64,000 bases of DNA from Syntrophomonadaceae bacterium (GCA_007121075.1 SKMK01000020.1:59647-123646), one strand, 5' to 3'; numbered from the stretch's first letter, positions 27,998 through 61,255 are shown. The notes: generated by a model from the letters alone, not told the origin. Translations and numbers: made by a program.

Positions 27998-29176
27998 TCA
28001 ACCGGTAAAAAAGCTGTACCGGGGAGCATAAGCTTTTTGATCGATCAGTTCCTGGTAAACTTCCAGCATTTTTTCGGCACAATGTGATGAAGAAATATAT
28101 GATACATTATTGTAGGCCTGTTTTCTCATCTGATCGTATAATTCCCTGTTTTCCAGCAGATCCAGGATGGCAGTGGTAAAAGAAGAGAGGGAAGGGTCGG
28201 TTAAAAAGCCGTCTTCGCCGTGATTAACTATTTCTGCCGGCCCAAAAGCGCGAATGGCAACTACCGGCAGGCCGGCGGCCTTGGCTTCCCCGATCACCAG
28301 GCCCTGGGTTTCTGTAACCGACGGGAAAACAAACAGGTCTGAGCTGGCATAGCAGTGGACTATTTTTTGGCGGGGCAGGACTCCGGTAAAAGTAACCTTA
28401 TCCTGGATCCCCAACTCCCGGGTCATCCTGCGCAGCGCATTTTCCTGGGGGCCTTTGCCGACCATGACCAGGCGGCAGTTAGGATACCTGGATTGCACGG
28501 TATGAAAGGCTTTGATCAGGAAGTTAACATTCTTTTCCTGGCCCAGGCGTCCTACAAACAGGAGAACTTTTTCATCAGGGTTTACGCCGTAATTTTCTTT
28601 CAGCCAGTTGGGGTTTAAATCGGTAAATTCCTCTAAATCGACCCCGGTGGGAATATTGACAATCGAGGTTTTGACCCCAATCCTTTGAAGGTAGCTAACA
28701 ATCATCTGGGAAGGCGCAATTACTTTATTACAGCGGTTGCAGAAATTGCGGCTGACTCTCTGGACAAATTGCTTTGAAGCCTGCCGGGCAAAAGGAAAGT
28801 AATGGACGTATTGATCATAAAGGGTATGGAAAGTGAAAATCAGGGGCAGCTTGTAACGCCGGGCAGCTCGAGCACCCATTCTGCCCAGCAGAAAAGGGGA
28901 ATGGCTGTGAATTATGTCCAACCCGAGGTGCTTTATAGTTTTTCCCAGCTGGGCTGATATGGGAATGGGCAGGGCAAAATCAGGCATGGTCGGGGCCGGC
29001 ACAGAAATAAAACGAAAAACACCTTCTTCTTTTGGCGATTGAAGAAGGGGGTAGTCGGGGCCGAATATATAAACTTCATGACCGCGGTTGCAGAATTCGC
29101 GCGAAAACAGTTCAATCGACCTGACCACGCCGCTGGTATAGGGGCGGAAGCTGTCCGTGAATATGCCTATTTTCAA
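27998..29176 (-). CDS. glycosyltransferase family 4 (GT-B, glycosyl transferase group 1)
   Basis: GT4 N-terminal domain and a C-terminal E-x7-E-like motif region (VFPSVTETQGLVIGEAKAAGLPVV). Confidence 0.8.
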   Translation of the reverse strand: MKIGIFTDSFRPYTSGVVRSIELFSREFCNRGHEVYIFGPDYPLLQSPKEEGVFRFISVPAPTMPDFALPIPISAQLGKTIKHLGLDIIHSHSPFLLGRMGARAARRYKLPLIFTFHTLYDQYVHYFPFARQASKQFVQRVSRNFCNRCNKVIAPSQMIVSYLQRIGVKTSIVNIPTGVDLEEFTDLNPNWLKENYGVNPDEKVLLFVGRLGQEKNVNFLIKAFHTVQSRYPNCRLVMVGKGPQENALRRMTRELGIQDKVTFTGVLPRQKIVHCYASSDLFVFPSVTETQGLVIGEAKAAGLPVVAIRAFGPAEIVNHGEDGFLTDPSLSSFTTAILDLLENRELYDQMRKQAYNNVSYISSSHCAEKMLEVYQELIDQKAYAPRYSFFTG

Positions 29177-29200
29177 GTTATTAAGCCCTCCCTGGTTTTA

Positions 29201-30589
29201 TTACTGCTGGTTTTCATGGGCCCGTTCGTAAAGCCGGTTGGATATTTCCATGGCCCGGGCCTTGTCTTCAGCGTGCCCGTACATTTCAAGGACTTCAATA
29301 TTTTTTTGGTGCCATTTTTTCAGTTCATCCACCCTGGACTGGCTTAAGTTGTACTCCTCGTGAGAACCGGTAAATACTTCGGAAAGAGGGAGGATGCGGT
29401 GGCGCCAGTCACGGTGAACCCAGGTTATTTCATAATCCGCCCCGCTGATCCAGGCTTCCCCGGAGTCCTTGTTTTTAGTCAAATCAATGTCAAGCAGGGC
29501 GCCGTATTCCACGAAAGGTGAAGGGTTATGGGGATAATGCTGGTTGGACAGGAAATTCCCCAGTGAGTATATGGCCAGGGTGGCCCGTTCTTCGCCGTCC
29601 TCGTTTTCATTAAAAAACCATTCCAGGGGCTGGATATAATGGGGATGCCCACCCATAATCAGGTCGGCCCCCGCTGCCGCCATCCGGGCGGCCACATCGC
29701 GCAGGCGCTGAGGCTGCGGTTCACTGACGTACATATTGCCCCAGTGTGGAAATACAGCCACAAGGTCGGCGCCGTGTTCCCTGGCTATTTGGATGTCATC
29801 AATTACAGGAGTAATATCTTCAAAGTCCGGGGCATAATTGACGCAGTACTCATGTCCCTGGGGGACGGGGATTCCGTTCAGGCCATAAGTATAGCCGATA
29901 AAAGCGATTTCAATCCCGTCATGTTCAATGATGGTAGGTGTATCCTGTTCTTCCGGGCCCTTGTAAGCGCCGAAAGTTTCGATGCCCAGGCCTCTGACAT
30001 GAGAAAGGCTGTTCATCAGCCCTTCATAGCCCCGGTCCAAAGTATGGTTATTGGCCATAGTCAGGGCGTTAAACCCGGCCTTTTTAAGGGCTTCAGAAAA
30101 CTCCTGGGGCGCGTTAAATTCCGGAAAACCGGTATAACCGGTCACTCCCCAGGCCACTGAACGAACTTCCGGGCCGGCCTGGGATGTTTCCAGGTCTCCC
30201 ACTGTTATATCGCCTTCTCGCAGGTACGGTTCGATAATTTCAAAGCTGGGGGTAAAATCATAGTTATCTTCACCCAGGTGAGCCTGTTCAATCTGAGGTA
30301 CATGGGCGGTAATGTCACCGGCTACTACCAGGTTTACCGTACGCAGATCAGGCTCATCAGGTTCATCTTCATCTGGAGCCTCTTCAATTTCTTGTTGATC
30401 TAATTCTTCCTCTGCGAGTTCGGTTGCTTTTTCTTCGACCGTCTCGCCGGAACTGATGTTTCCTACAACCAGGTCAAACAGCTCTCCCGGCGGATAAATG
30501 CCTCCGGCCCGGGTACCGATATTAAATGACAGGGTCAGCAGGATCAGGGCCAATATGATGAAATAGATTCGGCGCAAAGTTTTACTCAC
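29201..30589 (-). CDS. capA: CapA-family protein (poly-gamma-glutamate synthesis/metallophosphatase-like), membrane anchored
   Basis: N-terminal TM anchor, an acidic linker and the PGA_cap/CapA domain (DLVVAGDITAH..., GADLIMGGHPHYIQP). Confidence 0.75.
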   Translation of the reverse strand: MSKTLRRIYFIILALILLTLSFNIGTRAGGIYPPGELFDLVVGNISSGETVEEKATELAEEELDQQEIEEAPDEDEPDEPDLRTVNLVVAGDITAHVPQIEQAHLGEDNYDFTPSFEIIEPYLREGDITVGDLETSQAGPEVRSVAWGVTGYTGFPEFNAPQEFSEALKKAGFNALTMANNHTLDRGYEGLMNSLSHVRGLGIETFGAYKGPEEQDTPTIIEHDGIEIAFIGYTYGLNGIPVPQGHEYCVNYAPDFEDITPVIDDIQIAREHGADLVAVFPHWGNMYVSEPQPQRLRDVAARMAAAGADLIMGGHPHYIQPLEWFFNENEDGEERATLAIYSLGNFLSNQHYPHNPSPFVEYGALLDIDLTKNKDSGEAWISGADYEITWVHRDWRHRILPLSEVFTGSHEEYNLSQSRVDELKKWHQKNIEVLEMYGHAEDKARAMEISNRLYERAHENQQ

Positions 30590-30666
30590 CGTCCTATAGT
30601 AAGATTGTTTTAATTATAACATAGAGTCTTTTGCGCAGGGTCATTAAGACTGTACTCCCGGAAAGA

Positions 30667-31677
30667 TCAGCGCCGGCTCAGCCACAATATGGCCCGGTAC
30701 AACCAGGGCCACTGGGCACCGTCTTCTCCTTCCGTGCTGAATTGAGGTGACTGTTCGCTGTACCCGCCGATTTCAGGATGGGGCCCCAGCAGTAAGTATT
30801 TACCGCCCCCGCTTGTTCCGGCAATAATGGCAGGTTCATTGTTTGCCCGGTACCGGGCCAGGATTGTTACCGATTCTTCTTCGTCCGGTTCGAAATAAGG
30901 GCCGTCAAAATAGTACATCTCTTTTTCCGGGGTGAAACCGTGGTTGATGGGATGGCCTTCCATAAGCTCGATGGATCCGGTTTCACCCCATCCAATCAGC
31001 CCGGACAGAGGCCCGGCTCCTTTTCCTTTAAACAGTTCCAGGGGATATTCATAGTCACTACCCTCCCAGCGGAGGATCCTGGAAGCATAATATGCCCCGG
31101 CGCAACTGCCGATAAAAAGGCCGCCGTCATTAACAAAGTCACGGATGATGCTATGATCGCTGATAAAATTTTTATACTCCGCGGCAAAGCCGCCCGGAAA
31201 CCACAGCAGGTCATATTGTTCTTCGAGCCCGGGTTTTACAGCTTCATTTTCATCGAATACCGACCACTTAAAGCCGTAGTGATCAAGAAAGTGGCCGATA
31301 ACCTCAACATTTTCGCCCCAGCTTCCCTTGCCGGCATAAAGACCAACACGAGGAAGCTCGGGATCCTCCGCAAATTCCACAATATTACATTCAGTTTTTG
31401 AGCTATTTTGATCAGGTCCCGGTTCAGGTTCGTCAGGAAGCGGCGCTGAACCGCTGTTTGCCGGCAGCTCGTCATCCTCCTGAACAGCTGATTCTTCACT
31501 GTTATCCGCCACCGTGCCCGCTTGATTGTTGTCACCTGGATCTTCGCCTGTACAGGAAGTAAAAAGCAGGGAGGAGGTGATGAAAATAAAAAGGGCCGCA
31601 ACCAGGAAGATTATTCTATAAGCTCCGCAGTGTGAGCGGCAGGCAGAGCTGTTTTGTTTAATATGTAAGCCTATCAA
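30667..31677 (-). CDS. lipoprotein with class-I glutamine-amidotransferase-like (peptidase C26 / BPL_N-like) domain
   Basis: Signal peptide plus a lipobox-like LFTSC. A low-complexity linker. The C-terminal domain has a Cys nucleophile elbow (FIGSCAGAYYAS). Confidence 0.5.
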   Translation of the reverse strand: MIGLHIKQNSSACRSHCGAYRIIFLVAALFIFITSSLLFTSCTGEDPGDNNQAGTVADNSEESAVQEDDELPANSGSAPLPDEPEPGPDQNSSKTECNIVEFAEDPELPRVGLYAGKGSWGENVEVIGHFLDHYGFKWSVFDENEAVKPGLEEQYDLLWFPGGFAAEYKNFISDHSIIRDFVNDGGLFIGSCAGAYYASRILRWEGSDYEYPLELFKGKGAGPLSGLIGWGETGSIELMEGHPINHGFTPEKEMYYFDGPYFEPDEEESVTILARYRANNEPAIIAGTSGGGKYLLLGPHPEIGGYSEQSPQFSTEGEDGAQWPWLYRAILWLSRR

Positions 31678-31980
31678 TAAATAACCTCCGCGGTAAAAGC
31701 AGTAACAAGCAAAAATATTTATTAAATGATATTATAGCTGTTAAATGTAATTATATCAATCATAGAGCGAAATTGTTGTAGAAAAAATTCTTTGCAGCGC
31801 TGTCATGCTGGTTTAGTAGCAGACCTAACATACAAGGGTGTTATAAGGTAAAGGCGGCGTTATAATGCAAAGGCTCCCCCCTATTAGTTTACATAAGATA
31901 CATTATCGGAAGTTAATTCATGTTAGCTAAAGGACCAAAAAGAAGCACCTGCCCCTCTCCCCTGCCCTAAGGCCTGACCC

Positions 31981-33072
31981 TTACACATTTCTTCTCCAGT
32001 GTTCAAGAATAGAAGCAAACGTAGCGCCGCACTGAGGGCAGTCTCCATGGTGCCTGAGAATATAAGTGCAGCGACTGCACTTCAAAGCCGGGATTGGTTT
32101 CCCGCGGTCGGTGTCTTCAGCGCCTGTACCCGGCAAATGTTGCTGTTCCGGGAAAGGGCCGCTTTCCGGATCTCCTTTTTCCGGCCCCTTGCCTGCAGCT
32201 CCCTCCCTGCCGCTTAAATCATCTGGACCGGTGGATCCGCTTGAAGCGGGCCCATTATTAACTGTTTTTTCAGGTTCATTAACCGGATTTTGGCTCTTTT
32301 CTACCATATTATTCCTGTCATTTTCATTTCCTAAATAGTCTATAAGCTCGGCCTCCCCCCTTCTTTCCTCCTCTCTTCCATTTTCCCGGGGGCTTATTTC
32401 AGCGGAATGATCCCCCTGATTTTTATCATGGTTTTCCTCTCCAAAATTTTGTTTAACAGCTCCGGCAGGGGCTGCGGCCGGAATACCGCTTCTCCTGTAG
32501 CCCAGGATATCGTAATAAGTCATGCTGTGCTCTTCGAACAGGTGCTTGAGATAGGCCTGGGTTGTCGATGCGTCTCTGTGGCCCAGGGCGTTTTGAGCCA
32601 GGCGGATATCGTTCGTTTCTTTGATGATGTTGACGGCAAAGGTGCTGCGCAAAAGGTGTGGATGGACGTCCTTGTTTATGCCGGCCTTACGGGCCGTTCG
32701 CTTAACCATTTCCCGCAGGTAGCGGTCTTTAAGGCGCCCCCCTTTAAGGGTGCTAAAAAAATAGCTGCTTCCGGGCAATTGGACCAGGTGCCATTTTTCG
32801 AGAAGGGCAAGGAGCTCATCATCAAGCCACAAAGTACGCTCCCTGGCTGCCCCGCTTTCTGCGACATGGATTGTGCTTTCATTCCAGTTGATATCATTAG
32901 CTCTGAGATCCAGGACTTCCCCGGCGCGCAGTCCCGCCCTGAGCATAAGCATCAGCATACAGAGATTGCGCAGGCCGGTAGGCGCTTTTGGATTGGGAAT
33001 CCTCAACAATGCTGCCTGCTCACTGCTGCTTAAGACTGCTGTTTTTTCCCGGGATGGGTTCATAGTATTCAC
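31981..33072 (-). CDS. tyrosine-type site-specific recombinase catalytic domain fused to a disordered linker and C-terminal zinc ribbon
   Basis: Complete R-HxxR-H-Y catalytic signature (GLRAGE; HPHLLRSTFA; LGHRDASTTQAYLKH). No N-terminal core-binding domain. About 140 aa of G/E/N/P-rich low complexity follows, then CSRCTYILRHHGDCPQCG. Confidence 0.7.
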   Translation of the reverse strand: MNTMNPSREKTAVLSSSEQAALLRIPNPKAPTGLRNLCMLMLMLRAGLRAGEVLDLRANDINWNESTIHVAESGAARERTLWLDDELLALLEKWHLVQLPGSSYFFSTLKGGRLKDRYLREMVKRTARKAGINKDVHPHLLRSTFAVNIIKETNDIRLAQNALGHRDASTTQAYLKHLFEEHSMTYYDILGYRRSGIPAAAPAGAVKQNFGEENHDKNQGDHSAEISPRENGREEERRGEAELIDYLGNENDRNNMVEKSQNPVNEPEKTVNNGPASSGSTGPDDLSGREGAAGKGPEKGDPESGPFPEQQHLPGTGAEDTDRGKPIPALKCSRCTYILRHHGDCPQCGATFASILEHWRRNV

Positions 33073-47565: not shown

Positions 47566-48819
47566 TTATTCCCTCACCTGGCCGGATCCGTATATTATAT
47601 ATTTTAATGTGGTCAGGGCCTCCAGGCCCATCGGCCCCCGGGCGTGCAATTTCTGAGTGCTGATTCCCATTTCTGCACCAAGGCCGAACGCGGAACCGTC
47701 TGTAAAGCGGGTTGAAGCATTTACATAAACGGCGGCCGCATCAACTCTGGCCATGAATGTCCTCGAATGATCGTAACTGTCGGTTATGATCGCTTCTGAA
47801 TGGCCTGTGCCGTATTGGTTGATGTGATCAATGGCCCGGTCTAAATTTTCAACTACCCGGACAGCCAAAACCAGGTCAAGGTACTCCGTTTCCCAATCCT
47901 GCCCGGTGGCCGGTTTAATATCCGGCAGGTAAGTTTGCGTTTCCGGGCAGCCCCTTATTTCTACACCCAGTTTGGTTAAAGCGGGCAGCATTTTAGGCAG
48001 AAACCGGGGAGCTATATCTTTATGAACCAGTAATGTTTCCAGGGCATTGCAAACCCCGGGCCGCTGAACCTTGGCATTGACGGTAATAGCTACAGCCTTA
48101 TCCAGGTCGGCGTTATAATCTACAAAAGTATGGCAGTTGCCCGTTCCGGTCTGGATGATCGGAACGGTGGAATTTTCCACCACTGCATTGATCAGGGACT
48201 GTCCTCCACGCGGTATCAGCAAATCCAGGTACCGGTCGGCCTGCATTAAATCAAAAGCGGCACTGCGATCGGTATCTTCGATCAGGGCTATAGCGTCACC
48301 CGGAAGCTCTATAGCTGAAAGGCTCTGCCTGATTACTTTAATCAAAGCCCGGTTGGAATTTAGGGCTTCGGAGCTGCCGCGCAAAATAACGGCGTTTCCC
48401 GCTTTTAAAGCCAATCCCCCGGCATCAACAGTTACATTGGGCCGGGCTTCATAGATGATGGCAATTACTCCAATCGGGACCCGGACCTGGCCAATTTCCA
48501 GGCCATTGGGCCGTTTCCACATCTTTATAACTTCACCTACCGGATCGTCAAGATCTGCAATCCCCCGCAGGCCTTCGGCCGTTTCGGCGATCCGGCTTTC
48601 ATTCAGCATTAGGCGATCGTGAAAAGCATCGGTATAATGATCTTCGCTTTCCAGGCGTTCGAGGTCCTTTTTATTGGCTTCAATTATTTCTTTTTTGCTT
48701 TTTTCAAGGGAAACAGCAATTTTTTCCAGGGCTTTGTTTTTAATCGTGGTCGAAGTATTGGCCAATATTTTTGAGGCCTTACGGGCTTGCCTGCATTTTT
48801 CGAGAACCTCGGGATGCAT
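47566..48819 (-). CDS. proA: glutamate-5-semialdehyde dehydrogenase
   Basis: 417 aa aldehyde dehydrogenase-fold ProA with the catalytic Cys region. proBA arrangement. Confidence 0.9.
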   Translation of the reverse strand: MHPEVLEKCRQARKASKILANTSTTIKNKALEKIAVSLEKSKKEIIEANKKDLERLESEDHYTDAFHDRLMLNESRIAETAEGLRGIADLDDPVGEVIKMWKRPNGLEIGQVRVPIGVIAIIYEARPNVTVDAGGLALKAGNAVILRGSSEALNSNRALIKVIRQSLSAIELPGDAIALIEDTDRSAAFDLMQADRYLDLLIPRGGQSLINAVVENSTVPIIQTGTGNCHTFVDYNADLDKAVAITVNAKVQRPGVCNALETLLVHKDIAPRFLPKMLPALTKLGVEIRGCPETQTYLPDIKPATGQDWETEYLDLVLAVRVVENLDRAIDHINQYGTGHSEAIITDSYDHSRTFMARVDAAAVYVNASTRFTDGSAFGLGAEMGISTQKLHARGPMGLEALTTLKYIIYGSGQVRE

Positions 48820-48858
48820 AATTTTATCAACTCCTGTATCCTTTGATATTAACCTGAG

Positions 48859-49989
48859 TTAATAAATAACCAGGTTATCCCTGTGGATCACTTCTTCGGG
48901 AACCGGCCTGTCTATTATATTGGCGATATCGAGGCTGCTTCTTTTCTGAATCCAGATCAACTCTTCTGAAGCAAAGTTGGTCAATCCCCGGGCCAGTTCA
49001 TTTCCGTAGGGATCTTTGACCGTAATCAGGTCGCCCACAGTGAAAGATCCTTCCACATCGATCACTCCTATGGGCAGCAAACTTTTCCCTTGGGAGCGGA
49101 TTGCATTGCAAGCACCGCTGTCTATTGTAACACTGCCGCACGGAACCTGACCGTAGGCAATCCATCTTTTTCGCCTGCTGAGGAAGCGTTCCTGGGGCTG
49201 GAAATAGGTGCCGGCGTGTTCGCCCTTTAGCAACCTGGAAACCACACCGGGATCATAACCATTGGCAATATACATACCAACCCCTGAATTGGTAGCTACT
49301 TCAGCTGCCTGGAGCTTGGTAATCATCCCCCCTGTTGCCAGGTTGTCATGTGATGTTTCTGCGCCGGCTTTAATGCTGTCGTCGATTTTTTCAACATAAG
49401 GGATCAGTTCAGCATCCGGGTATTTCCTGGGGTTTTTGTTGTACAGACCTTCTATATCGGTGAGGATAACCAGTAAATGAGCATCGCTTAAGCCGGCAAC
49501 CAGCGCGGAAAGGCGATCGTTATCGCCAAATTTCAACTCTTCCACCGAAACCGAATCGTTTTCATTGATAACGGGTACAACCCCGAGTTTGAGCAGGGTT
49601 AAAACTGTATTGCAGGCATTGATATAGCGCCGCCTGCTTACCAGGTCGGTGCGGGTCAGCAAAATCTGTCCAACAACCAGGCCATACTCGGCAAAAAGTT
49701 TTTCATAAATCTGAACCAGCAGGCCCTGCCCGACGGCGGCTATGGCCTGCTTTTCCGGAATGGAGATAGGGTTCCTGTTAATGTTAAGTCTTCCCCGCCC
49801 GGCACCGATCGATCCAGATGAAACCAGGATCACTTCATGACCCTGGTTGCATACATCAGCCAGTTCCCTGGTCAGTTTTTCCATGTACCCCAGGTTAAGT
49901 TTGCCGGTATCGTGAGTTAAAAGGCGGGTTCCTACCTTAACCACGATCCGGCAGGGAGCGGGGATAGAAATTTTTTTGTTTTTAGCCAC
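48859..49989 (-). CDS. proB: glutamate 5-kinase
   Basis: Amino-acid kinase domain plus a C-terminal PUA domain. It overlaps the proC stop. Confidence 0.9.
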   Translation of the reverse strand: MAKNKKISIPAPCRIVVKVGTRLLTHDTGKLNLGYMEKLTRELADVCNQGHEVILVSSGSIGAGRGRLNINRNPISIPEKQAIAAVGQGLLVQIYEKLFAEYGLVVGQILLTRTDLVSRRRYINACNTVLTLLKLGVVPVINENDSVSVEELKFGDNDRLSALVAGLSDAHLLVILTDIEGLYNKNPRKYPDAELIPYVEKIDDSIKAGAETSHDNLATGGMITKLQAAEVATNSGVGMYIANGYDPGVVSRLLKGEHAGTYFQPQERFLSRRKRWIAYGQVPCGSVTIDSGACNAIRSQGKSLLPIGVIDVEGSFTVGDLITVKDPYGNELARGLTNFASEELIWIQKRSSLDIANIIDRPVPEEVIHRDNLVIY

Positions 49990-50797
49990 GGCGCAATTTC
50001 TCCGCCTGATTTGTTGCTGCGATCACCGATTTTAGAAGACAGCTGCGGAACCCTGATTCTTCCAGCACGTGCATGGCTGCCGTGGTTGTCCCGGCCGGGG
50101 AAGTGACGGAATTTCTGAGTTCGGCCGGATGCTGCTTGCTGTTCTCCTGGAGCATGCGGGCAGATCCGATTACATTTTGGATTACCATTTCAGAAGCAAC
50201 ATCACGGCGAAAGCCCACCGCCACCCCGGCATCAATCATGGTTTCAATGAACAAAAATACATAGGCCGGGCCGGTGCCGCTCAGTCCAGTTGCCGCATCC
50301 ATCAGGTATTCAGGGATCCTGATGGTAATGCCCATGGATTTCAGCAATGATTCAATTTCATCTCGCTCTTCCGCGGTTACGTTGTCACCGGCGCTGATAG
50401 CGATTGTGCCTTCCCCAAGTAAACACGGGGTGTTTGGCATCAACCGTATCACCTTGCTGAATGAAGGCAAACAGCTTTCTATAAAATTGATGGTTATTCC
50501 GGCTGCAATGGAAGCAAATATCTGACCCTGCTGGACATAATCTTTAATCGAGTATAGCAGGCTTTCAATGTCCTGGGGTTTGACGGCAATAAAGATTTGC
50601 CGACACTGTGATATCACTTCTTCAAGGTTTTCCGCCCCGATAGCATTCAATTCAAGGGCCAGTTCCTCTACTCTTTCCCGGTTCAGGTCATAAAGGTAAA
50701 CCTGGGCCGGGTCAACACCTACTTTTTTTACAATACCTTTTGCCAGGGCTGAACCCATTGCTCCGCAGCCAATCAAACCAATTTTTTTAATGTCCAT
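49982..50797 (-). CDS. proC: pyrroline-5-carboxylate reductase
   Basis: Rossmann motif GLIGCGAMGSA and the P5CR C-terminal domain. A candidate TTGCAT-17-TAAAAT promoter at 50833-50861 lies just upstream. Confidence 0.9.
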   Translation of the reverse strand: MDIKKIGLIGCGAMGSALAKGIVKKVGVDPAQVYLYDLNRERVEELALELNAIGAENLEEVISQCRQIFIAVKPQDIESLLYSIKDYVQQGQIFASIAAGITINFIESCLPSFSKVIRLMPNTPCLLGEGTIAISAGDNVTAEERDEIESLLKSMGITIRIPEYLMDAATGLSGTGPAYVFLFIETMIDAGVAVGFRRDVASEMVIQNVIGSARMLQENSKQHPAELRNSVTSPAGTTTAAMHVLEESGFRSCLLKSVIAATNQAEKLRRG

Positions 50798-50982
50798 GTT
50801 GATCTTTCCTCTCCTTTAAAAACTTATCACTTATTTTAACCAAAGGGCAAAGTTAATGCAATAGCAGGCATATAGAAAAGTTTTCATGCCTTTTCAGGTA
50901 CAAATTGTATAAGGTGCTTAAGATATTAAGGGGTCCTTCAGGTTAACTTGCAGGCATACTGGCGGCTTGTGTACAAATAAAT

Positions 50983-51277
50983 AAAAAGCCAGGTTCCAAC
51001 AGGCCTTCCAGCTTTCCGTCGGATTTCTTCACTGTCCCCTCTACAGTCGGGATTCCACCACCGCCTCTGGATGGCTTTCCCCCAACCTCCGGGCAGTTAC
51101 TTTCATCCGTGCTGTGATTCCCGGTAAAATCCCGGCCCGTAAGCCTTTCAATTACCGGTTCTTTCAGCGATCCAGCTTTAGGGATGGCCCTTCCGTGGAT
51201 TCCGGTTTACCCTTCCTCCACTTCCGGTTTCCCTGCCGACCGGACCCGGTTCACTTTCCAGTCTCTCGGAACCTGGC
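50983..51277 (-). ncRNA. candidate ~295-nt purine-rich structured non-coding element (sRNA / leader / MITE-like), unclassified
   Basis: Minus-strand TTGACA-17-AATAAT promoter at 51284-51312. A perfect 10-bp long-range inverted repeat, GCCAGGTTCC with GGAACCTGGC, encloses 275 nt and is followed by a U-tract. There is no ORF. About 18 GGA motifs, many in an (A/C)CGGAAG context. Confidence 0.35.
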
Positions 51278-51345
51278 ATTATTATTATTGATCAATCCTG
51301 TCAGTTTGTCAATACCTTTTACAAGATTTTTATTTGTTTCTTTTG

Positions 51346-52545
51346 TCAGGCAAATATTTTTCTGATCTTGTCCAGGGCCCAGTCCAGGTCTTCACGGGTG
51401 ACAACCAGCGGAGGCGTAAACCGGATCACATTCTCGTGGGTTTCCTTGGAGAGGATCCCCACCTTCATAAGTTCTTCGCAATAACTGCGAGCCTTGACTT
51501 TAAGTTCAATTCCCGTCAGCAAACCTTTGCCCCTGACTTCGACTATCTGCGGATTATCGATCTTTTTCAGCTCTTCAACAAAATATTTTCCGCTTTCCAG
51601 GGATTTCTCAACCAGGTTTTCTTCCTGCAGCACATCCATAGCGGATATACCAACGGCACAGGCCAGGGGGTTGCCGCCAAAGGTGGAACCGTGGGAGCCG
51701 GGATCGAAAACGTCCATAATGCTGTCATCGGCAGCTATAGCCGAGATAGGCAGGACTCCGCCCCCCAGGGCTTTGCCGAGGATGTAAATATCGGGTTTAA
51801 CGTCTTCCCAGTCGCAGGCAAAAAGTTTTCCGGCCCGGCCAAACCCGGTTTGAATCTCATCGGCCATAAAGAGGATGTTGTTTTCTTGGCAAACCCGGTA
51901 AGCTTCTTTCAGGAACCCCTCCGGGGGAATAATAATACCACCTTCACCCTGGATCGGCTCGATTAACAGGCCGGCTGTGTTGGGGGTAATTGCTTTTTTT
52001 AAGGCTTCGAGATTGCCGTATTCAATCAGCTTGAATCCCGGTGTAAAAGGCCCAAAATCCTTGTTATAAGATTCATCAGAGCTGAATGAAACGACGGTTA
52101 TGGTTCTGCCGTGGAAATTACCGTTGCAGACAATTACTTCAGCTTTGTTGCCGGGAATGTTTTTCTTGCGGTAAGCCCATCTACGGACGGCTTTGAGGGC
52201 CGTTTCAACCGCTTCAGCACCGGTATTCATGGGTAGGATTTTTTCTTTTCCTGTCAGCCTGGACAGTTTTTCGCTAAAGGGGCCCAGTTTGTCATTATGG
52301 AAGGCCCTGGAGGTTACCGTAATCATGTCGGCCTGATCTTTTAAAGCCTTGATAATTTTAGGGTGGCAATGGCCAAAATTCATTGCCGAATAAGCACTTA
52401 ACATATCCATGTAGCGATTTCCTTCTGGATCTTCGACCCATACCCCTTCTGCCCGCGATAGGATTACCGGCAAAGGAAGATAATTACGGGCTCCATACTG
52501 TTCTGTGATACTGAGTATTTCATTTGTGCTGGTAATTTTAATCAC
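51346..52545 (-). CDS. rocD: ornithine--oxo-acid aminotransferase
   Basis: Class-III PLP aminotransferase with Lys in TSRAFHND...GKALGGG, closest to the OAT/RocD subfamily. 399 aa. Confidence 0.8.
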
Positions 52546-54100: not shown

Positions 54101-54176
54101 TGGCAGGGGAGACAGGACTTGAACCCGCAGCCTGCGGTTTTGGAGACCGCTGCTCTGCCAGTTGAGCTACTCCCCT
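54101..54176 (-). tRNA. tRNA-Trp (anticodon CCA), CCA encoded
   Basis: The minus-strand sequence AGGGGAG-TA-GCTC-AACTGGCA-GAGC-A-GCGGT-CTCCAAA-ACCGC-AGGCT-GCGGG-TTCAAGT-CCTGT-CTCCCCT-G-CCA folds as a canonical cloverleaf. Confidence 0.8.
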
Positions 54177-54246: not shown

Positions 54247-56628
54247 TTATCCCAATTCATGGGCGGTACGGGCAATTATTTCGTTTTGAAGCTGCTCGCT
54301 GAGATTGTTGAAATAATCGCTGTAGCCAGCCACCCTGACAATCAGGTTACGGTACTGCTCCGGGCTCTTTTGAGCTTCACGCAGTGTGTCGGCATCGATC
54401 ACGTTGAACTGGATGTGATGGCCGTCAAGTATAAAGTAAGCACGGATCAGCTGGGCCAGGCTGTCCAACCCCTTGTTGCCCGCCAAAACCCGGGGAGTAA
54501 ATTTCATGTTCAAGAGGGTGCCGCCCGTAAGCAGGTGGTCCATTTTTGAAGCCGACTTAATTACCGCAGTAGGCCCGTTAAGGTCAACGCCCTGGGCGGG
54601 AGAGATTCCTTCGGATAAAGGCAGCCCGGCCAGCCGCCCATCGGGTGTTGCCCCGATTACCGAGCCAAAGTAAACATGGCAGGTGGTGGGCAGCATATTG
54701 ATCCGGTATGTGCCTCCACGGGCCGTCCCGCGCCCGTCCACGGTGCGGTGGAAACGCTTGAACACCTCCTGCATAATGATATCGGCGTAGTCATCGTCAT
54801 TGCCATAATGCGGGGTTTTGCGGATTAAAAACTGTCTTTTGTCTTCCCCGTTTTGGTAGTTGTTACTGAGCAGTTCAAGCAATTCTTTCCAGGTAAAATT
54901 TTTCTCTTCGAAAATATGCTTTTTAAGTGATGACAGGCTGTCGGTAATGGTGCCAATGCCAACGCCCTGGATATAGCTGGTATTGTAACGGGCACCGCCG
55001 GCATTGTAGTCCCTGCCGTTGTCGATGCAGTCATCGATTATCAGGGAGAGGAACGGGGCAGGCATTTGCTCGGCATACAGTTTTTCAATAACCTGGTTAC
55101 CGGCAATTTTGATGTCAATAAAGTAGCGAAGTTGTTTTTCAAAGGCTTCGAGCAGATGATCAAAGTTTTCGAACTGATCCGGGTTCCCGGTATCAAGCCC
55201 CACCATTTTCCCATCCGCCGGGTTTTTGCCGTCATTCAACGTTATTTCCAGGATTTTGACCAGGTTGAAATAACCGGTCAGAATATAGCTTTCCCTGCCG
55301 AAAGCGCCGGTTTCCACGCAACCGCTGGTCCCACCACAGCGGGCATCAATCAGTGATTTACCCTGGGCCAGCAGCTCACTGATTACTGCTTCAACATTAA
55401 AGACTGAGGGCTGGCCCCAGCCTTTCCTGATCACCTCCCCTGCTTTTTTCAAAAACAGGTCGGGGCTTTTTTTGCTGACCTGGACGTTGGTGCTCGGTTG
55501 CAGCAGCCTCATCTCATCGATTACTTCCAGCAGCAGATAAGTGACGTCATTTATTCCATCGCTACCGTCCGGTCTGACCCCTCCCAGGTTGATGTTGGCA
55601 AAATCAGTATAGGTGCCGCTTTCCTGCAAAGTAATCCCTACCTTGGGCGGGGCGGGCTGGTTGTTAAATTTGATCCAGAAGCACTCCAGCAGCTCCCTGG
55701 CCTTTTCCCTGGACAGGGAGCCATCTTCCAGGCCCTGATAATAAAATGGAGCCAGATGCTGGTCAAGACGGCCCGGGCAAAAGGCATCCCAGGTATTTAG
55801 TTCGGTAACCACACCCAGGTGCACAAACCAGTAATACTGCAGGGCTTCCCGGAAGTTGCGGGGCGGATAGGCCGGGACACGCTCACAAACAGCAGCAATT
55901 TGCTGAAGCTCCTGTTTTCGCCGGGCATTTTTTTCGGCACCGGCCAGCTCCCTTGCCTTTTTGGCATGGCGCCCGGCAAACGCAACCACGGCATCGGCGC
56001 AAACAGACATTGCTTCCAGCTGTTCACTCTTGGAAACAGCTTCAGGATCGTTCATAAAATCAAGTCCCGAGAGCACCTTCGCAATCTCTTCCTTCAGATC
56101 AAGCATCCCCTTTTTATAAATTTTATCACCGGCCACGGTGTGCCCCGGAGCGCGCTGTTCCATAAATTCAGTAAACAAACCGGCCTCGTAACAGTTCAGC
56201 CATTCTTTGCTCATCCGGCTGAAAATTTTATCCCTCATCGAACGCCCCTGCCAGTAAGGGATGATGGTTTCTTCCTGGATTTTTTTAACATCGTCGGTAA
56301 CTTTAAAGGAAATGGTCTTGCGATTATTGATAACATCCAGATCATCCAGGGTATGGCAGCACAGTTCGGGATAAGTGGGGGCAGCCTGCGGTCCGGTCCC
56401 CCTTTCCCCGACAATCAGTTCATCTTCATTAATACAGGTAGTTTTATTTTCCATCAGGTGCTTAAACGCAAGCGCTCTGAGCATTGGCGCGGTCACCTTG
56501 CCTTCGTACTTGCGATAAGCTTCTGTTACCAGCACCGCCCTCTCGGCGGTGATAGCCGGTACTGTATCTTCGCTCTGCTGCCTTAATTTTTTAACCCTTT
56601 CATTCATACCTCTGATCTCTTCACTCAT
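54247..56628 (-). CDS. glycyl radical enzyme, PFL2/glycerol-dehydratase class (substrate unknown; trans-4-hydroxy-L-proline dehydratase is one candidate)
   Basis: C-terminal glycyl radical motif RVAGYS and a Cys-loop GCVE in SGCVETG. About 793 aa if it starts at ATG 56628, which has a GAGGA RBS; the ORF-track start at 56691 overlaps the activase. Confidence 0.75.
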   Translation of the reverse strand: MSEEIRGMNERVKKLRQQSEDTVPAITAERAVLVTEAYRKYEGKVTAPMLRALAFKHLMENKTTCINEDELIVGERGTGPQAAPTYPELCCHTLDDLDVINNRKTISFKVTDDVKKIQEETIIPYWQGRSMRDKIFSRMSKEWLNCYEAGLFTEFMEQRAPGHTVAGDKIYKKGMLDLKEEIAKVLSGLDFMNDPEAVSKSEQLEAMSVCADAVVAFAGRHAKKARELAGAEKNARRKQELQQIAAVCERVPAYPPRNFREALQYYWFVHLGVVTELNTWDAFCPGRLDQHLAPFYYQGLEDGSLSREKARELLECFWIKFNNQPAPPKVGITLQESGTYTDFANINLGGVRPDGSDGINDVTYLLLEVIDEMRLLQPSTNVQVSKKSPDLFLKKAGEVIRKGWGQPSVFNVEAVISELLAQGKSLIDARCGGTSGCVETGAFGRESYILTGYFNLVKILEITLNDGKNPADGKMVGLDTGNPDQFENFDHLLEAFEKQLRYFIDIKIAGNQVIEKLYAEQMPAPFLSLIIDDCIDNGRDYNAGGARYNTSYIQGVGIGTITDSLSSLKKHIFEEKNFTWKELLELLSNNYQNGEDKRQFLIRKTPHYGNDDDYADIIMQEVFKRFHRTVDGRGTARGGTYRINMLPTTCHVYFGSVIGATPDGRLAGLPLSEGISPAQGVDLNGPTAVIKSASKMDHLLTGGTLLNMKFTPRVLAGNKGLDSLAQLIRAYFILDGHHIQFNVIDADTLREAQKSPEQYRNLIVRVAGYSDYFNNLSEQLQNEIIARTAHELG

Positions 56629-56629
56629 C

Positions 56630-57535
56630 TCAATCATCCTCGCTGAGTATTTTAATCCCCTGCGTTTTAAACCGGCCCTTGACCCGGTCAAACTCTTCTG
56701 CGGTGGGAGTATTAATCGTCCCGGGGCGATATTCCAGGTCGAGCCGGGTATACTTGGCGGTTCCGAGATTATGATAAGGAATCAGTTCAAGCTCATCAAG
56801 TCCATACTCTTGTAACAGCTCCGCTACGGCATCGATATTATGGTCGTGATCGTTTATTGTTGGAATGACCGGCATCCGGGCTTTGATCCTGGCTCCTTTT
56901 TTCACCAGTTTTTTCAGGTTGTCAATACCCAGGTTGTTTGACATCCCGGTAAACTTCCTGCTTTCAAGGTCGTCAGCCAGCTTGAGATCATACAGAAACA
57001 GGTCGGCGCGGTCGGCAATACGCTCCAGGTCCGCCCAGGGAGCACAACCGGAAGTATCAATAACAGTATGAACTTCTTCCCGATTAAAAGCTTTAAGCGC
57101 CTCTTCCAGGAAATCGGGCTGCAGAAGAGGTTCTCCGCCGGAAAAAGTAATCCCGCCCCCGGATCTGTCGAATATAAACCGGTCCTTTAGAGCTTCTTTT
57201 ACCAGCTCTCCCACCGTGTATTCTTTTCCCACCGCTTCCAGGGCTTCGGCAGGGCAAACAGCGGCACATTCTATACATCGGACACAAAGATCACGGTTTA
57301 TAACCGGCCCTGTTTCCCCGACCCTGATTGCCCCTTCCGGGCAGACTTCCATACAGGCTGCGCAACCCAGGCAGCGTTCCGGTTGTCTCATAATATCAGT
57401 CTCCGGGCTGATGCTTTCCGGGTTCTGGCACCACCAGCAGCTAAGGGGGCAGCCTTTGAAAAAGATGGTGGTCCTGATCCCGGGCCCGTCATGTAAAGAA
57501 TAGCGCTGTATATTGAAAATAAGTCCCTTTTTCAT
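56630..57535 (-). CDS. glycyl-radical enzyme activating enzyme (radical SAM, with extra ferredoxin-like clusters)
   Basis: N-terminal CPLSCWWC radical SAM motif, GPGIRTT and two additional CxxCxxCxxxC-type clusters. 301 aa. Confidence 0.85.
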   Translation of the reverse strand: MKKGLIFNIQRYSLHDGPGIRTTIFFKGCPLSCWWCQNPESISPETDIMRQPERCLGCAACMEVCPEGAIRVGETGPVINRDLCVRCIECAAVCPAEALEAVGKEYTVGELVKEALKDRFIFDRSGGGITFSGGEPLLQPDFLEEALKAFNREEVHTVIDTSGCAPWADLERIADRADLFLYDLKLADDLESRKFTGMSNNLGIDNLKKLVKKGARIKARMPVIPTINDHDHNIDAVAELLQEYGLDELELIPYHNLGTAKYTRLDLEYRPGTINTPTAEEFDRVKGRFKTQGIKILSEDD

Positions 57536-57554
57536 CGGTCGTCCTTACATTTCT

Positions 57555-59132
57555 TTATGTTTCTTTGTTGAGTTTTTCATATATAGTCCTGGCTGTTTCT
57601 GTGACTGAGAGCCCGCCCCGGCCGGTACAGCGCAGTTCCGAAGGGAGCATTTTGCCGCAGCTGTACATGGCCCCAATAGTTTCATCAAGGGGAATAACCC
57701 TGTCAAACCCGGCCAGGGCCATATCGGCACAGCCAACTGCATTAAGCCCGGCCATTATGTTTTTTCCCAGGCAGGGCACTTCCACTCTTTCAGCCACCGG
57801 ATCGCAGACCATGCCCATCACATTTTGAAGGGCCATGGCCGCTGCATCAAATCCCTCTCCCACCGTACCGCCCGCCATTTGAACCAGCCCCGCGGCGGCC
57901 ATACCGGAGGCGGATCCGCATTCGGCCTGACAGCCGCATTCTTCTGCGGCAAAAGTGCTGCTTCCGGCAATTAGGGCTCCAACCAGGCCGGCGGCCAGCA
58001 AACTTTTAACAATTTGATCGTTTTCAAGCTGTTTGTCCCCGGCTACAGCAGTCAGAGTTCCGGGAAGGGTGCCGCATGACCCGGCCGTGGGGGCCGCTAC
58101 AATCACCCCGAAGGCGCTTTTTGTTTCCATCACGGCGCTGGTATTGGCAATAATGGCGGCAGAAAGATCATCTCCGATCAGCCTGCTCCGGTGGTTGATT
58201 ATTAGTTGTGACTGTGGCCCCAGGATCCGGTTGCTGTATTCGGTCCCGGCCAAACCTTCCCGCACCGACTGCTCCATAACCCGGGCCAATTCACAGGCCA
58301 TCTGCCACACTTCTGATTCGGATATCCCTCCTCGAATACTTTCGTAACGTAGGGCCAGCTCCCACAGGGCCAGGTTTTCCCGTTCTGCCAGGGCCAAAGC
58401 TTCCCCGGCGCTTTCAAAGGGCATCCGGTAGTCCTTTTTTGAACGGACCGGGAGCAACGGTTCGATTTGGATGACCGCAAGCGGGTTGGTTTGCCCATTT
58501 ATCGCCTGTACCAGCCTGTCTTCTAATTTATAACCGGTTTTAAGGTTGATCAGGCCTTTATTTCCCGCTGCAGCAATAGTTATATAATCGTAGCCGGAAA
58601 CCATCTCCGCTATGATTCTGCTGTATTTCTGCAGAGTGCCTGGATTCGGATCATTGTAAAACAACAGGGTTTCATCAAAACCGCCTCCAATCGAAACATC
58701 AAAGCCATTGATGTTTCGAACATCGATCATGCCCCCGCCGGTAGAAAGACAAATCAGCTGCATTTCTTCTCCTTTATCTGAAGCGGCCCTGATCCGGTAA
58801 GTATTGGGGTGATCGGCTGGAAAAGGAGTAATATTAAAAGAAATGTCCAGGTTTTTCTGCCGGGCCGTTTCCAGGGCAGTGCACAGTCCCGGATCGCTTA
58901 AATCCATTCCTAAAAGTCCAGCGGCCAGGCCGATATCGGCGCCCTGCTCGTGGTAGGTGGAGGCCAGGGAACCGTCGGGATCAAAATCGACATGACAGTA
59001 GCGGCAGGTCCCGGGCAGGCACTGCTTGACGACACAGCCGATCCTGACCGAAGCAGCTGTGTGTGAGCTGGATGACCCCCTCATGATCGGGCCGATGACA
59101 TCGTTAAAAATACTTGGCGGTTGTTTTTCCAT
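57555..59132 (-). CDS. sdaA: L-serine dehydratase, iron-sulfur dependent, fused beta-alpha single chain
   Basis: Beta-type N-terminus (SIFNDVIGPIMRGSSSSHTAASVRIG) and alpha-type C-terminus (GCQAECGSASGMAAAG). 525 aa. Confidence 0.75.
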   Translation of the reverse strand: MEKQPPSIFNDVIGPIMRGSSSSHTAASVRIGCVVKQCLPGTCRYCHVDFDPDGSLASTYHEQGADIGLAAGLLGMDLSDPGLCTALETARQKNLDISFNITPFPADHPNTYRIRAASDKGEEMQLICLSTGGGMIDVRNINGFDVSIGGGFDETLLFYNDPNPGTLQKYSRIIAEMVSGYDYITIAAAGNKGLINLKTGYKLEDRLVQAINGQTNPLAVIQIEPLLPVRSKKDYRMPFESAGEALALAERENLALWELALRYESIRGGISESEVWQMACELARVMEQSVREGLAGTEYSNRILGPQSQLIINHRSRLIGDDLSAAIIANTSAVMETKSAFGVIVAAPTAGSCGTLPGTLTAVAGDKQLENDQIVKSLLAAGLVGALIAGSSTFAAEECGCQAECGSASGMAAAGLVQMAGGTVGEGFDAAAMALQNVMGMVCDPVAERVEVPCLGKNIMAGLNAVGCADMALAGFDRVIPLDETIGAMYSCGKMLPSELRCTGRGGLSVTETARTIYEKLNKET

Positions 59133-59169
59133 AGTGCTATCTAATATTCTCCTTCTTTGGGAATTTCAT

Positions 59170-59964
59170 TTAAAGCAGGGATCCCTTTTCAAACCGATAA
59201 TAAACCAGGACAAACAAGATCAGAAACATCAATAACAGCAACCAGATCCCCGTGGCCAAAGTGCCCCACTCCCACCCGCTGATTACCAGGTCGCGGACTG
59301 GAATAACTGCATAGGAAATCGGGTTGAAGCGGGCAATAGCCCGGATCCAATCCGGCATTACGGCGGTGGGAAATAGAGCGCTGCTGCTGAACACGAGCGG
59401 CAGGGTCAGGAAGTTGATAACTGAAAACAAAGTTTCAGGGGTCCTGATCGAAGCAGACAAAAACAGCGATATACAGCTCATAATCGCTGCGAACAGACCG
59501 CATATTAAAAGGGTGACCAGAATACCGGGCAAACCGGTAGCGAAAGTGATGCCCATTGCGGCGGCCAGGATGGCGATCACCGAAACCTGGAACATGGTCT
59601 GCAAAACCAGGGCTGATATTTTGCCCAGAGCAATGCTGTAGCGGGGTATGGGGGCGCTGAGGAGTTTAATTAGAAAACCCATTCTCCGGTCCCAGATAAT
59701 CGATATTCCGCCAAAAACCCCGGTATAGAGAGAGGACATCATCATCACGCCGGGAACCATGAAAGCCAGGTAGTTGTCGACGCCAATCATTTCTGCGGTA
59801 ACGGGGTTGTCGGTCAACCTGGCCATCATACTGCCCATCAATACCAGCCAGATCACCGGCTGGACAACGGACATCAAGATCCGCATTTTCTGCCCCGTAA
59901 AACGCTTGATCTCTCTCCAAAATATATAATAGGCACCTTTTAAACCAATTGTCATTGCTGTCAT
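59170..59964 (-). CDS. ABC-2 type transporter permease
   Basis: Six-TM ABC-2 family permease immediately downstream of the ATPase. Confidence 0.75.
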   Translation of the reverse strand: MTAMTIGLKGAYYIFWREIKRFTGQKMRILMSVVQPVIWLVLMGSMMARLTDNPVTAEMIGVDNYLAFMVPGVMMMSSLYTGVFGGISIIWDRRMGFLIKLLSAPIPRYSIALGKISALVLQTMFQVSVIAILAAAMGITFATGLPGILVTLLICGLFAAIMSCISLFLSASIRTPETLFSVINFLTLPLVFSSSALFPTAVMPDWIRAIARFNPISYAVIPVRDLVISGWEWGTLATGIWLLLLMFLILFVLVYYRFEKGSLL

Positions 59965-60030
59965 TTATTCACCTTAATTATCATTTTACCCGCCTTGACC
60001 GGTTATCTTCCGGTTGACAAAACCCACATG

Positions 60031-61062
60031 CTAACGGGTTTTCCTGAGGCGGCGCATACTAGAACGGACCCTATCCATTTCTTCCCGGGAAACACTTTCT
60101 TCACGGAGTTGCCTTCCGGTATGGTAAAGAAAAACATCATCCAGGGAAGGCATCTTCAGGGTAACTTTTTTTAAATTAAGTCTCAGTCCATCCAGGGCCT
60201 CAAAAAAGAGCGGCAGGGACTCTTCGCTGTTATCAGTTAAAAGCAAGTATTCGTCGTCCTTTTGGGTTATTTCCCTGACGAAATCTTGATTTTTTAACCT
60301 GATCATGGCCTGATCAATAGTTTCGGGACGGGCCGATTGATCAAACTGGAAGACAATCAACCCTCCTCCCATCTGCTTTTTCAGACTCTCCGGGGTATCG
60401 ATTGCTTTCAGGCTGCCCCGGTCGATGATGGCAACGCGCCGGCATAATGAATCCGCTTCGTCCATATAGTGGGTGGTAAGCAGGATGGTCATTTTCACCT
60501 CTTCGCGCAGCCGTTTGATATAGTGCCATATTTCATGTCTGGTCTGAATATCGAGGCCCAGGGTGGGTTCATCCAGGAACAGTATTTCCGGACGGTGGAT
60601 CAACCCGCAGGCAATATCGAGGCGTTTGCGCATCCCGCCCGAATAAGTATCAACCCGGTCCCTGGCCCTTTCCATAAGGCCGACCAGTTCCAAAACTTCA
60701 TCGATCCTTTTGTGTCGAATTGCATGATCCATGTGATATAGACCGGCCTGCAATCTCAGGTTATCCAGGCCGGTCAATTCATCATCAATGGCCAGTTCCT
60801 GGGAAACGTAACCCAGGTTCATCCTGACCCTGTTTTTATCTTTGATCACATCGACGCCGTTAACCCTGGCCAGGCCGCCTGTAGGTGCAAGCAGGGTGGT
60901 TAAAACCATGATCAGGGTAGTCTTACCGGCCCCGTTTGGACCCAGAAGCCCAAATATTTCCTGTTCCGGGACGGAAAAACTGACCCCGTCCAGGGCTTTT
61001 ATCCCGCCCGGATAGATTACTGATAAATTGTCAACTTCAATCATCTTGCGGCTGTCCTTCAA
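60031..61062 (-). CDS. ABC transporter ATP-binding protein (DrrA-like, with C-terminal extension)
   Basis: Walker A GPNGAGKTT, signature YSGGMRKRL and Walker B ILFLDEPT. Confidence 0.85.
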   Translation of the reverse strand: MKDSRKMIEVDNLSVIYPGGIKALDGVSFSVPEQEIFGLLGPNGAGKTTLIMVLTTLLAPTGGLARVNGVDVIKDKNRVRMNLGYVSQELAIDDELTGLDNLRLQAGLYHMDHAIRHKRIDEVLELVGLMERARDRVDTYSGGMRKRLDIACGLIHRPEILFLDEPTLGLDIQTRHEIWHYIKRLREEVKMTILLTTHYMDEADSLCRRVAIIDRGSLKAIDTPESLKKQMGGGLIVFQFDQSARPETIDQAMIRLKNQDFVREITQKDDEYLLLTDNSEESLPLFFEALDGLRLNLKKVTLKMPSLDDVFLYHTGRQLREESVSREEMDRVRSSMRRLRKTR

Positions 61063-61255
61063 ATATAAGCACTCCCCGATGGTTTGGAAATCCCGATTAT
61101 TTCTGTTTGAATCATAACATAAGAACGGTTATTATTTTACACTAATATCGGCTTATTTATGTATATTTTAAAAATTGCGTTCCAATCTTTCACGGCCCAC
61201 TCAGGGCACATTTACAGCGGCAAAAACAACCGGCTTTAAATAGGAGTTGTTCCTG

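Follow-up and report, generated by a model that had tools for sequence, protein, structure and literature searches.

A probable anaerobic trans-4-hydroxy-L-proline utilisation operon with an older ABC-2/serine dehydratase-like module upstream in a Syntrophomonadaceae bacterium

The closest described counterpart of the locus reported here is Clostridioides difficile's trans-4-hydroxy-L-proline system, which comprises the glycyl radical enzyme (GRE) HypD, its activating enzyme HypD-AE and a pyrroline-5-carboxylate (P5C) reductase (Levin et al. 2017), and for which the structures 6VXC and 6VXE are available. In that enzyme H160, D278, D339 and E436 were assigned as acid-base residues, S334, Y450 and T645 as carboxylate contacts and F340 as a ring contact, with R156, K326, C434 and G765 as further HypD-defining residues (Backman et al. 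2020). An association of hypD with proC is already in the literature. We analysed a 64,000-nucleotide stretch of DNA from a Syntrophomonadaceae bacterium (GCA_007121075.1, SKMK01000020.1:59647-123646; hereafter the window, with positions counted from its first letter), in which a cluster of five minus-strand genes encodes, in order of transcription, an ATP-binding cassette (ABC) ATPase, an ABC-2 permease, a serine dehydratase-like (SDH-like) Fe-S protein, a GRE activase and a GRE. As in C. difficile, the GRE gene lies beside an activase gene and has a proC nearby; in contrast to that system, the order is activase then HypD, the SDH-like gene and the ABC-2 transporter stand ahead of them, proC is no immediate neighbour but belongs to a rocD-proCBA block on the far side of a tRNA-Trp gene, and no prd genes are in view.

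The GRE is predicted to be HypD, a dehydratase acting on trans-4-hydroxy-L-proline. It scored 1371.5 bits against the NCBIfam HypD equivalog NF043068 (cutoff 1100), and the cutoff of no other GRE model was passed; the next-best equivalog, sulfopropanediol dehydratase, reached 591 bits (cutoff 1000) and the CutC model 512 bits (cutoff 1050), with scores far under the cutoffs for the pyruvate formate-lyase (PFL), indoleacetate decarboxylase and hydroxyphenylacetate (HPA) decarboxylase models. Matches to the Pfam domains Gly_radical and PFL-like were 122 and 752 bits. Among solved enzymes, C. difficile HypD (PDB 6VXC) aligned at 1143.7 bits without a gap across 785 residues, a score about twice that of any other, the next best being glycerol dehydratase at 570 bits, with HplG at 414 bits.

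This ungapped alignment, in which a window residue number equals the native C. difficile number plus three, was used to read the active site. Thirteen of thirteen C. difficile HypD residues (R156, H160, D278, K326, S334, D339, F340, C434, V435, E436, Y450, T645 and G765) were found to be identical in the window GRE, and F152 is also kept. The first-pass annotation of this DNA had taken a GCVE cysteine loop and a length of about 793 amino acids as compatible with HypD and had proposed that the substrate pocket be compared with those of characterised enzymes. The loop is present at residues 436-439 (C437/E439), the glycyl motif RVAGYS contains G768, and the orthologues are 793 amino acids long; as the 13 HypD residues and F152 are retained, the pocket is therefore not that of a glycerol or propanediol dehydratase. 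Both fold and GCVE loop occur throughout the PFL2 class and would be expected equally of a glycerol/propanediol dehydratase, CutC, an isethionate lyase or HplG. However, D278, D339 and S334, which occur only in HypD, are all found in the window GRE and every alternative model falls far short of its cutoff, so that another identity within the class is extremely improbable and, as far as sequence can decide, effectively refuted.

The remaining anatomy of the cluster is consistent with this assignment. All five open reading frames (ORFs) claimed for it were recovered by ORF calling, and the domain content proposed for each gene was borne out by Pfam and NCBIfam models. The gene directly ahead of hypD is clearly predicted to encode a GRE activase (336 bits against TIGR02494, cutoff 174), and its stop codon lies 1 nt ahead of the hypD ATG. 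Although a TTG at 56691 opens the mechanically called GRE ORF, translation was taken to start at the ATG at 56628, because a GAGGA ribosome-binding site lies upstream of it, the activase stop is only 1 nt away, orthologues have 793 residues and an identical 793-residue protein occurs in public collections. Successive genes from the ATPase to the GRE are separated by 66, 37, 19 and 1 nt, the last three have ribosome-binding sites ahead of them, and no convincing terminator was found inside the five-gene cluster; co-transcription of the five genes as one operon is therefore likely. A search with Rfam models for riboswitches and leader RNAs between 50 and 64 kb returned tRNA only.

Taken as a whole, the locus probably represents an anaerobic trans-4-hydroxy-L-proline utilisation operon with an older ABC-2/SDH-like module upstream, a reading to which we give a probability of about 0.85 from sequence and synteny. 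In the proposed mechanism Gly768 of HypD would be converted to a glycyl radical by the radical S-adenosylmethionine (SAM) activase; hydroxyproline would then give up a hydrogen to a thiyl radical on Cys437, and its C4 hydroxyl would be eliminated with the aid of Asp281, His163 and Glu439. The product would be P5C, which could be reduced to proline by ProC, converted to ornithine by RocD, or both. Several observations weigh against so simple a picture. The best equivalog of the activase is indeed the HypD activase NF043069, but at 369 bits it stays under the cutoff of 425; no prd cluster for a Stickland D-proline reductase was found among the window ORFs of at least 150 amino acids not nested in a longer ORF; and genes of the ornithine cyclodeaminase (OCD)/pyrroline-2-carboxylate (Pyr2C) reductase and proline racemase families were sought in the window and none was found. 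In addition, at the related locus L089 (loci of relatives are referred to by such numbers) the string of genes from surE onward is entirely co-directional and tightly packed, and close packing by itself therefore argues only weakly that the ABC, SDH-like and HypD proteins share a function.

The genes that would consume P5C lie beyond the 3' end of hypD. The presence there of rocD and a proC cluster, and with it a possible link to proline metabolism, had been proposed in the first-pass annotation; the genes are present as stated, and the link is strengthened by a close relative, L003 (GCA_003552905.1), whose HypD is 83% identical and in which the SDH-like gene, activase, HypD and tRNA-Trp run straight into rocD, proC, proB and proA with no gene of the KamA family. 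In the window a KamA-like gene intervenes, which fell under the glutamate 2,3-aminomutase (454 bits, cutoff 650) and AblA (450 bits, cutoff 525) equivalogs. Its GC content is 0.38, with 0.32 at third codon positions (GC3), and an adjoining 401-bp AT-rich spacer has a GC content of 0.33, as against about 0.50 GC and 0.55 GC3 in the neighbouring genes. Because this gene and spacer are compositionally foreign and are absent from L003, the 3.5 kb that separate hypD from the pro genes appear to be a recent insertion beside the tRNA, before which hypD and the P5C-consuming genes would have been contiguous.

The tRNA-Trp gene itself is a conserved neighbour of hypD, following it in three of three close relatives (L002, L003 and L004). 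Membership of the operon was considered for it and rejected, since the tRNA gene is served by a separate near-consensus promoter, an 11/12 sigma-70 match (TTGACA-17-TAAAAT, 54216-54188); a hairpin lies 3' of the tRNA. In L004 (10100-12923), from a soda-lake Syntrophomonadaceae metagenome-assembled genome, hypD and tRNA-Trp are followed by genes for 2,4-diaminopentanoate dehydrogenase, OrtA and an OrtB-like pyridoxal phosphate (PLP) enzyme, an arrangement which hints that HypD-derived P5C could go by way of ornithine to oxidation, giving acetyl-CoA and alanine. The features of the locus are collected in Table 1.

Table 1. Features of the hypD locus and its proline/ornithine neighbourhood, in window coordinates
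Feature	Coordinates	Strand	Basis
ABC ATPase, DrrA subfamily	60031..61062	-	profile match
ABC-2 type permease, DrrB-like	59170..59964	-	profile match
SDH-like: 525-aa Fe-S protein of the serine dehydratase family, with beta, ACT-like and alpha domains fused	57555..59132	-	Pfam and structure model
HypD activating enzyme: predicted radical SAM activase, two ferredoxin-like auxiliary cluster motifs	56630..57535	-	profile match
Predicted glycyl radical enzyme HypD, 793 aa	54247..56628	-	equivalog model and residues
AT-rich intergenic region, GC 0.37, candidate promoter region	61063..61255	-	suggested by weak sigma-70-like matches only
tRNA-Trp(CCA), directly 3' of hypD	54101..54176	-	tRNA search; same tRNA after hypD in L002-L004
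KamA-family radical SAM gene, 359 aa	52620..53699		under all equivalog cutoffs
rocD, ornithine--oxo-acid transaminase (P5C/glutamate-5-semialdehyde <-> ornithine)	51346..52545	-	NF003145 696 bits, cutoff 656
proC, pyrroline-5-carboxylate reductase, expected consumer of the HypD product	49982..50797	-	TIGR00112 267 bits, cutoff 197
proB and proA (glutamate 5-kinase, glutamate-5-semialdehyde dehydrogenase)	47566..49989	-	annotation

The other 47 kb or so of the window hold housekeeping genes, for example pnp, recA, mutSL, miaAB, leuA and gltX, and nothing related to proline. Two further observations were made in the window. The gap between rocD and proC (50798-51345) is unusually long, with 548 bp of non-coding sequence, and no Rfam match to it rose above noise, the best being a spurious one to a lncRNA model (E 0.086). 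At 27888-33072, glycosyltransferase, PGA_cap and BPL_N-like genes and then a phage-type integrase (31981-33072) come after a tRNA-Gln gene (27888-27961), a grouping which may mark a second tRNA-associated island.

The transporter ahead of the SDH-like gene resembles DrrAB-type ABC-2 transporters in its ATPase, which scored 343 bits against the DrrA-subfamily model TIGR01188 (cutoff 312), and in the membrane domain of its permease (Pfam ABC2_membrane, 100 bits); it differs in that the permease reached only 133 bits against the DrrB model, under the cutoff of 223. A further difference is that the pair comes and goes among close relatives with the rest of the locus unaffected. The arrangement of the window is found again in L002, and in L003 and L004 the order is surE, rtcB, SDH-like, activase and HypD, without the ABC pair. 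In L087 and L089 the order is surE, rtcB, ABC, ABC2, OCD and SDH-like, and in L005 and L026 surE, rtcB, OCD and SDH-like. The L087 pair, which thus precedes an OCD and an SDH-like gene, is 72% (permease) and 75% (ATPase) identical to that of the window. On the simplest reading of these gene orders, there was an ancestral ABC-ABC2-OCD-SDH-like block, still seen behind surE and rtcB in related Syntrophomonadaceae-like genomes, from which OCD would have been lost in the lineage of the window, with activase and HypD gained downstream, and the ABC pair would have been lost independently in some of the relatives. Given this shared arrangement, the supposed exporter was thus probably inherited together with the SDH-like/OCD module and not recruited by HypD.

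Side by side with these comparisons, three loci without HypD (L005:11696-14275, L026:7395-10013 and L089:9676-12555) were seen to have, after the SDH-like gene, genes for a polyferredoxin and an unusually long aldehyde:ferredoxin oxidoreductase of 719 amino acids, to which L089 adds a ThiS-like gene; a Liv-type amino-acid ABC importer comes next. Homologues of the DHDPS-like, M24 peptidase, aldehyde:ferredoxin oxidoreductase, OCD and proline racemase genes were sought in the window and in L002-L004, and none was found.

The SDH-like protein was compared with the Fe-S L-serine dehydratases (LSDs), represented by the type 2 enzyme of Legionella (4RQO), SdaA of Escherichia coli and the two-component SdaAA/SdaAB. 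Pfam matched SDH_alpha at 210 bits and SDH_beta at 25.9 bits against a cutoff of 26, and no other family. Its cluster ligands C401, C443 and C454 correspond to C343, C385 and C396 of 4RQO (whose chain numbering is offset by 18 in the alignment), the SSSH motif of its beta domain aligns with GPSSSHT of SdaA, and both the three cysteines and S21-S22-S23-H24 are invariant across 23 family members. An AlphaFold2 model built with 23 homologues (pLDDT 88, pTM 0.89) comprises a beta core and an alpha domain as well as an ACT-like domain (153-223) with the pattern b-a-b-b-a-b, and Foldseek placed 4RQO first, followed by the ASB and ACT domains of Mycobacterium tuberculosis phosphoglycerate dehydrogenase and then by the cysteine desulfidase CyuA. 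The fold, the three cysteine ligands, SSSH and the order of beta before alpha are thus shared with the LSDs, and the protein is most likely an intact, active [4Fe-4S] dehydratase that would carry out alpha,beta-elimination on a beta-hydroxy amino acid.

It departs from those enzymes, however, in several respects. Identity to E. coli SdaA is about 30%, and relative to it about 85 residues are inserted as the ACT-like domain; a C-terminal cysteine that the Legionella enzyme has is missing; the gene context is one of OCD and hydroxyproline genes; and the score falls under all five LSD equivalog cutoffs (sda_alpha 212 bits against 243, sda_beta 120 against 161, sda_mono 147 against 345, PRK15040 119 against 873 and PRK15023 108 against 942). 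The fused family is large: when clustered at 50% identity, over 150 cluster representatives match near full-length. It has members in Firmicutes, Bacteroidota, Chloroflexota, Synergistota, Bilophila and Enterococcus.

The neighbours of this family were surveyed within 6 kb of the SDH-like gene in 83 loci, the 80 best genome loci and three obtained by exact look-up, in 82 of which the SDH-like ORF is intact. At least one neighbour linked to proline or hydroxyproline, or an Xaa-Pro peptidase, was found in 48 of the 83. Immediately next to the SDH-like gene, 18 of the 83 have a gene of the OCD/mu-crystallin family, as do five of seven further contexts (23/90). In the 18 it is mostly co-directional and placed 9-400 bp upstream, with some downstream or divergent cases; these loci belong to Syntrophomonadaceae, Desulfosporosinus, Tissierellia, six Enterococcus species, seven Bacteroidales and one Roseivirgaceae. 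Other neighbours were M24 Xaa-Pro peptidase (17 loci), DPP-IV (18), AraC (14), DHDPS-like (11), HypD (4), proline-racemase family (3) and DAO (2). Oxidative hydroxyproline clusters of the classical kind are present at two loci, L061 and L031, where a DHDPS-like gene accompanies a Cys/Cys epimerase; L061 has in addition DAO and a peptide transporter, and L031 an aldehyde dehydrogenase. The best solved relative of four OCD partners from different lineages was the Pyr2C reductase of Thermococcus litoralis (6T3E, 154-270 bits), with Archaeoglobus fulgidus alanine dehydrogenase second (127-207 bits); true ornithine cyclodeaminase scored 53-84 bits where it was listed, being unlisted for the fourth partner.

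Linkage of HypD with an SDH-like gene occurs in four gene orders. Besides the clade of the window, L084 has HypD, activase, OCD and SDH-like in one tight operon, its HypD being 50% identical to that of the window with 13 of 13 residues kept; Desulfosporosinus L006 has activase and HypD, a divergent Cys/Thr proline-racemase-type gene with OCD, and then SDH-like; and the metagenomic L101 has DHDPS-like, SDH-like and HypD. Approached from the HypD side, 80 environmental HypD loci gave an SDH-like neighbour in one, OCD in four, a Cys/Thr 3-hydroxyproline-dehydratase-type gene in three, proC in five and M24 peptidase in three. The first-pass annotation had regarded a serine dehydratase and an exporter as an unusual combination for a GRE of this class, and in terms of frequency this holds, given the single case among 80. 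It does not hold in the sense of a random assortment: the SDH-like gene appears to have been inherited, along with the ABC-2 pair, from an older module, and its family recurs beside hydroxyproline and proline genes in several phyla.

Three side observations came from the same surveys. The metagenomic locus L143 (681-10026) has the appearance of a complete collagen-peptide utilisation operon, with an S37 peptidase, a Cys/Thr 3-hydroxyproline dehydratase, an OCD-family gene, a POT di/tripeptide transporter, an M24 Xaa-Pro peptidase, an activase and HypD. In L006 (76-4273, Desulfosporosinus sp. I2) there are two tandem GRE-activase genes, and the HypD-like GRE is split into ORFs of 621 and 175 amino acids, by a frameshift or an assembly error. 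Finally, a gene for a TauE/SafE-family membrane protein adjoins the SDH-like gene in 15 loci (L008, L010, L012, L046-L051, L075-L082; Enterococcus and Bacteroidota), and its product could be the transporter of the SDH-like family where the ABC-2 pair is missing.

What the SDH-like enzyme does in such loci can be read in three ways. It may be an ordinary Fe-S L-serine deaminase, producing pyruvate and ammonia from serine, that is a syntenic passenger like the ABC-2 pair and behind which HypD happened to land; we consider this a serious candidate, though at somewhat less than even odds. All of the L-serine dehydratase catalytic apparatus is kept and the best solved relative is the Legionella enzyme, and single-chain LSDs with an ACT domain reportedly have L-serine dehydratase activity. 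The position after surE and rtcB is retained in relatives without HypD, the SDH-like gene accompanies HypD so rarely in the environmental loci, and the lineage of the window lacks an OCD partner, which fits a pyruvate product that needs no dedicated reductase. An ordinary serine deaminase would nevertheless not be expected to fall under all five LSD cutoffs, nor to have proline- or hydroxyproline-linked or Xaa-Pro peptidase neighbours in so many of the family loci, and serine has no obvious place in the four arrangements that join the gene to HypD. The enzyme might instead dehydrate a 3-hydroxyproline isomer to Pyr2C, which the OCD-family reductase usually encoded beside it would convert to proline, complementing the action of HypD on 4-hydroxyproline. 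The closest known counterpart would be the LhpH/LhpI pathway for trans-3-hydroxy-L-proline (Watanabe et al. 2016), and relatives of the window do pair the SDH-like gene with an OCD gene of the T. litoralis LhpI (TlLhpI) type in hydroxyproline loci; the SDH-like protein, however, has no homology to LhpH, which has the proline racemase fold, or to AcnX, and the window has no LhpI-like gene. We regard this second function as possible but doubtful. It accords with OCD adjacency across Firmicutes and Bacteroidales in both gene orders, with the closeness of all four tested OCD partners to 6T3E, with L143, where the equivalent position is occupied by a Cys/Thr proline-racemase-type 3-hydroxyproline dehydratase and OCD, and with Bacteroidota members that lie in hydroxyproline clusters of AraC, DHDPS-like, epimerase, DAO and aldehyde dehydrogenase genes together with DPP-IV and Xaa-Pro peptidases. 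Alpha,beta-elimination of the serine-dehydratase kind, applied to 3-hydroxyproline, would yield exactly Pyr2C, and AcnX provides a precedent of an Fe-S dehydratase acting on 3-hydroxyproline; for these two reasons the two functions are held to be roughly comparable candidates. Against a 3-hydroxyproline substrate, neither the window nor L002-L004 has an OCD gene, 35 of the 83 family loci have no such neighbour, and L006 and L087 also carry a Cys/Thr trans-3-hydroxyproline dehydratase, so that the SDH-like enzyme would there need a different hydroxyproline isomer.

In BhcB/BhcD of the beta-hydroxyaspartate cycle an imine reductase of the OCD family partners a dehydratase, and such a precedent allows the SDH-like and OCD proteins to be envisaged as a module that converts serine or threonine to alanine or 2-aminobutyrate, the 2-imino or 2-oxo acid being reduced or reductively aminated. 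The archaeal alanine dehydrogenase is, as mentioned above, the second-best relative of the OCD partners. TlLhpI itself has an alanine dehydrogenase side activity, and its authors noted flanking dehydratase genes (Watanabe et al. 2014); the enzyme nevertheless prefers Pyr2C, belongs to a 3-hydroxyproline cluster and has an unphysiological Km for ammonium. The neighbouring hydroxyproline, epimerase and peptidase genes would be left unexplained by an alanine-forming module and its OCD component is missing from the window, and we thus think this function unlikely. Apart from a passing remark in Watanabe et al. (2014), a study which preceded by three years the recognition of the PFL-like gene as HypD, no link between Fe-S serine dehydratases and hydroxyproline was found in the literature searched, and among its Pfam matches the SDH-like protein had no homology to the known 3-hydroxyproline dehydratases (proline-racemase Cys/Thr, AcnX and enolase types). 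We therefore put forward only tentatively, and with greater doubt than belief, the proposal that the fused SDH-like family constitutes a fourth, non-homologous type of dehydratase for 3-hydroxyproline or a related cyclic beta-hydroxy amino acid, and that it is not physiologically a serine deaminase.

The core of the locus, HypD, its activase and the nearby ProC, is an already known system to which the window contributes a new member, and as the biochemistry of HypD is established, it adds only that one member, probably from a soda-lake Syntrophomonadaceae-like organism. HypD lets anaerobes turn collagen-derived hydroxyproline into a precursor of proline, and the window shows that HypD, as a source of P5C, can be encoded near rocD and proCBA, and in a relative near the ord/ortAB genes of ornithine oxidation. 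The unusual part is the SDH-like Fe-S enzyme, whose relatives recur beside proline and hydroxyproline genes, often with a gene resembling Pyr2C reductase, in Firmicutes and Bacteroidales; it belongs to a very large family that is annotated everywhere as "L-serine ammonia-lyase" and is found repeatedly inside loci for hydroxyproline and proline peptides. If the substrate were indeed an isomer of hydroxyproline, annotations would have to be revised by the thousand and a step missing from anaerobic collagen degradation would be supplied; the SDH-like enzyme and HypD together would then make up a complete anaerobic route from both collagen hydroxyprolines to proline.

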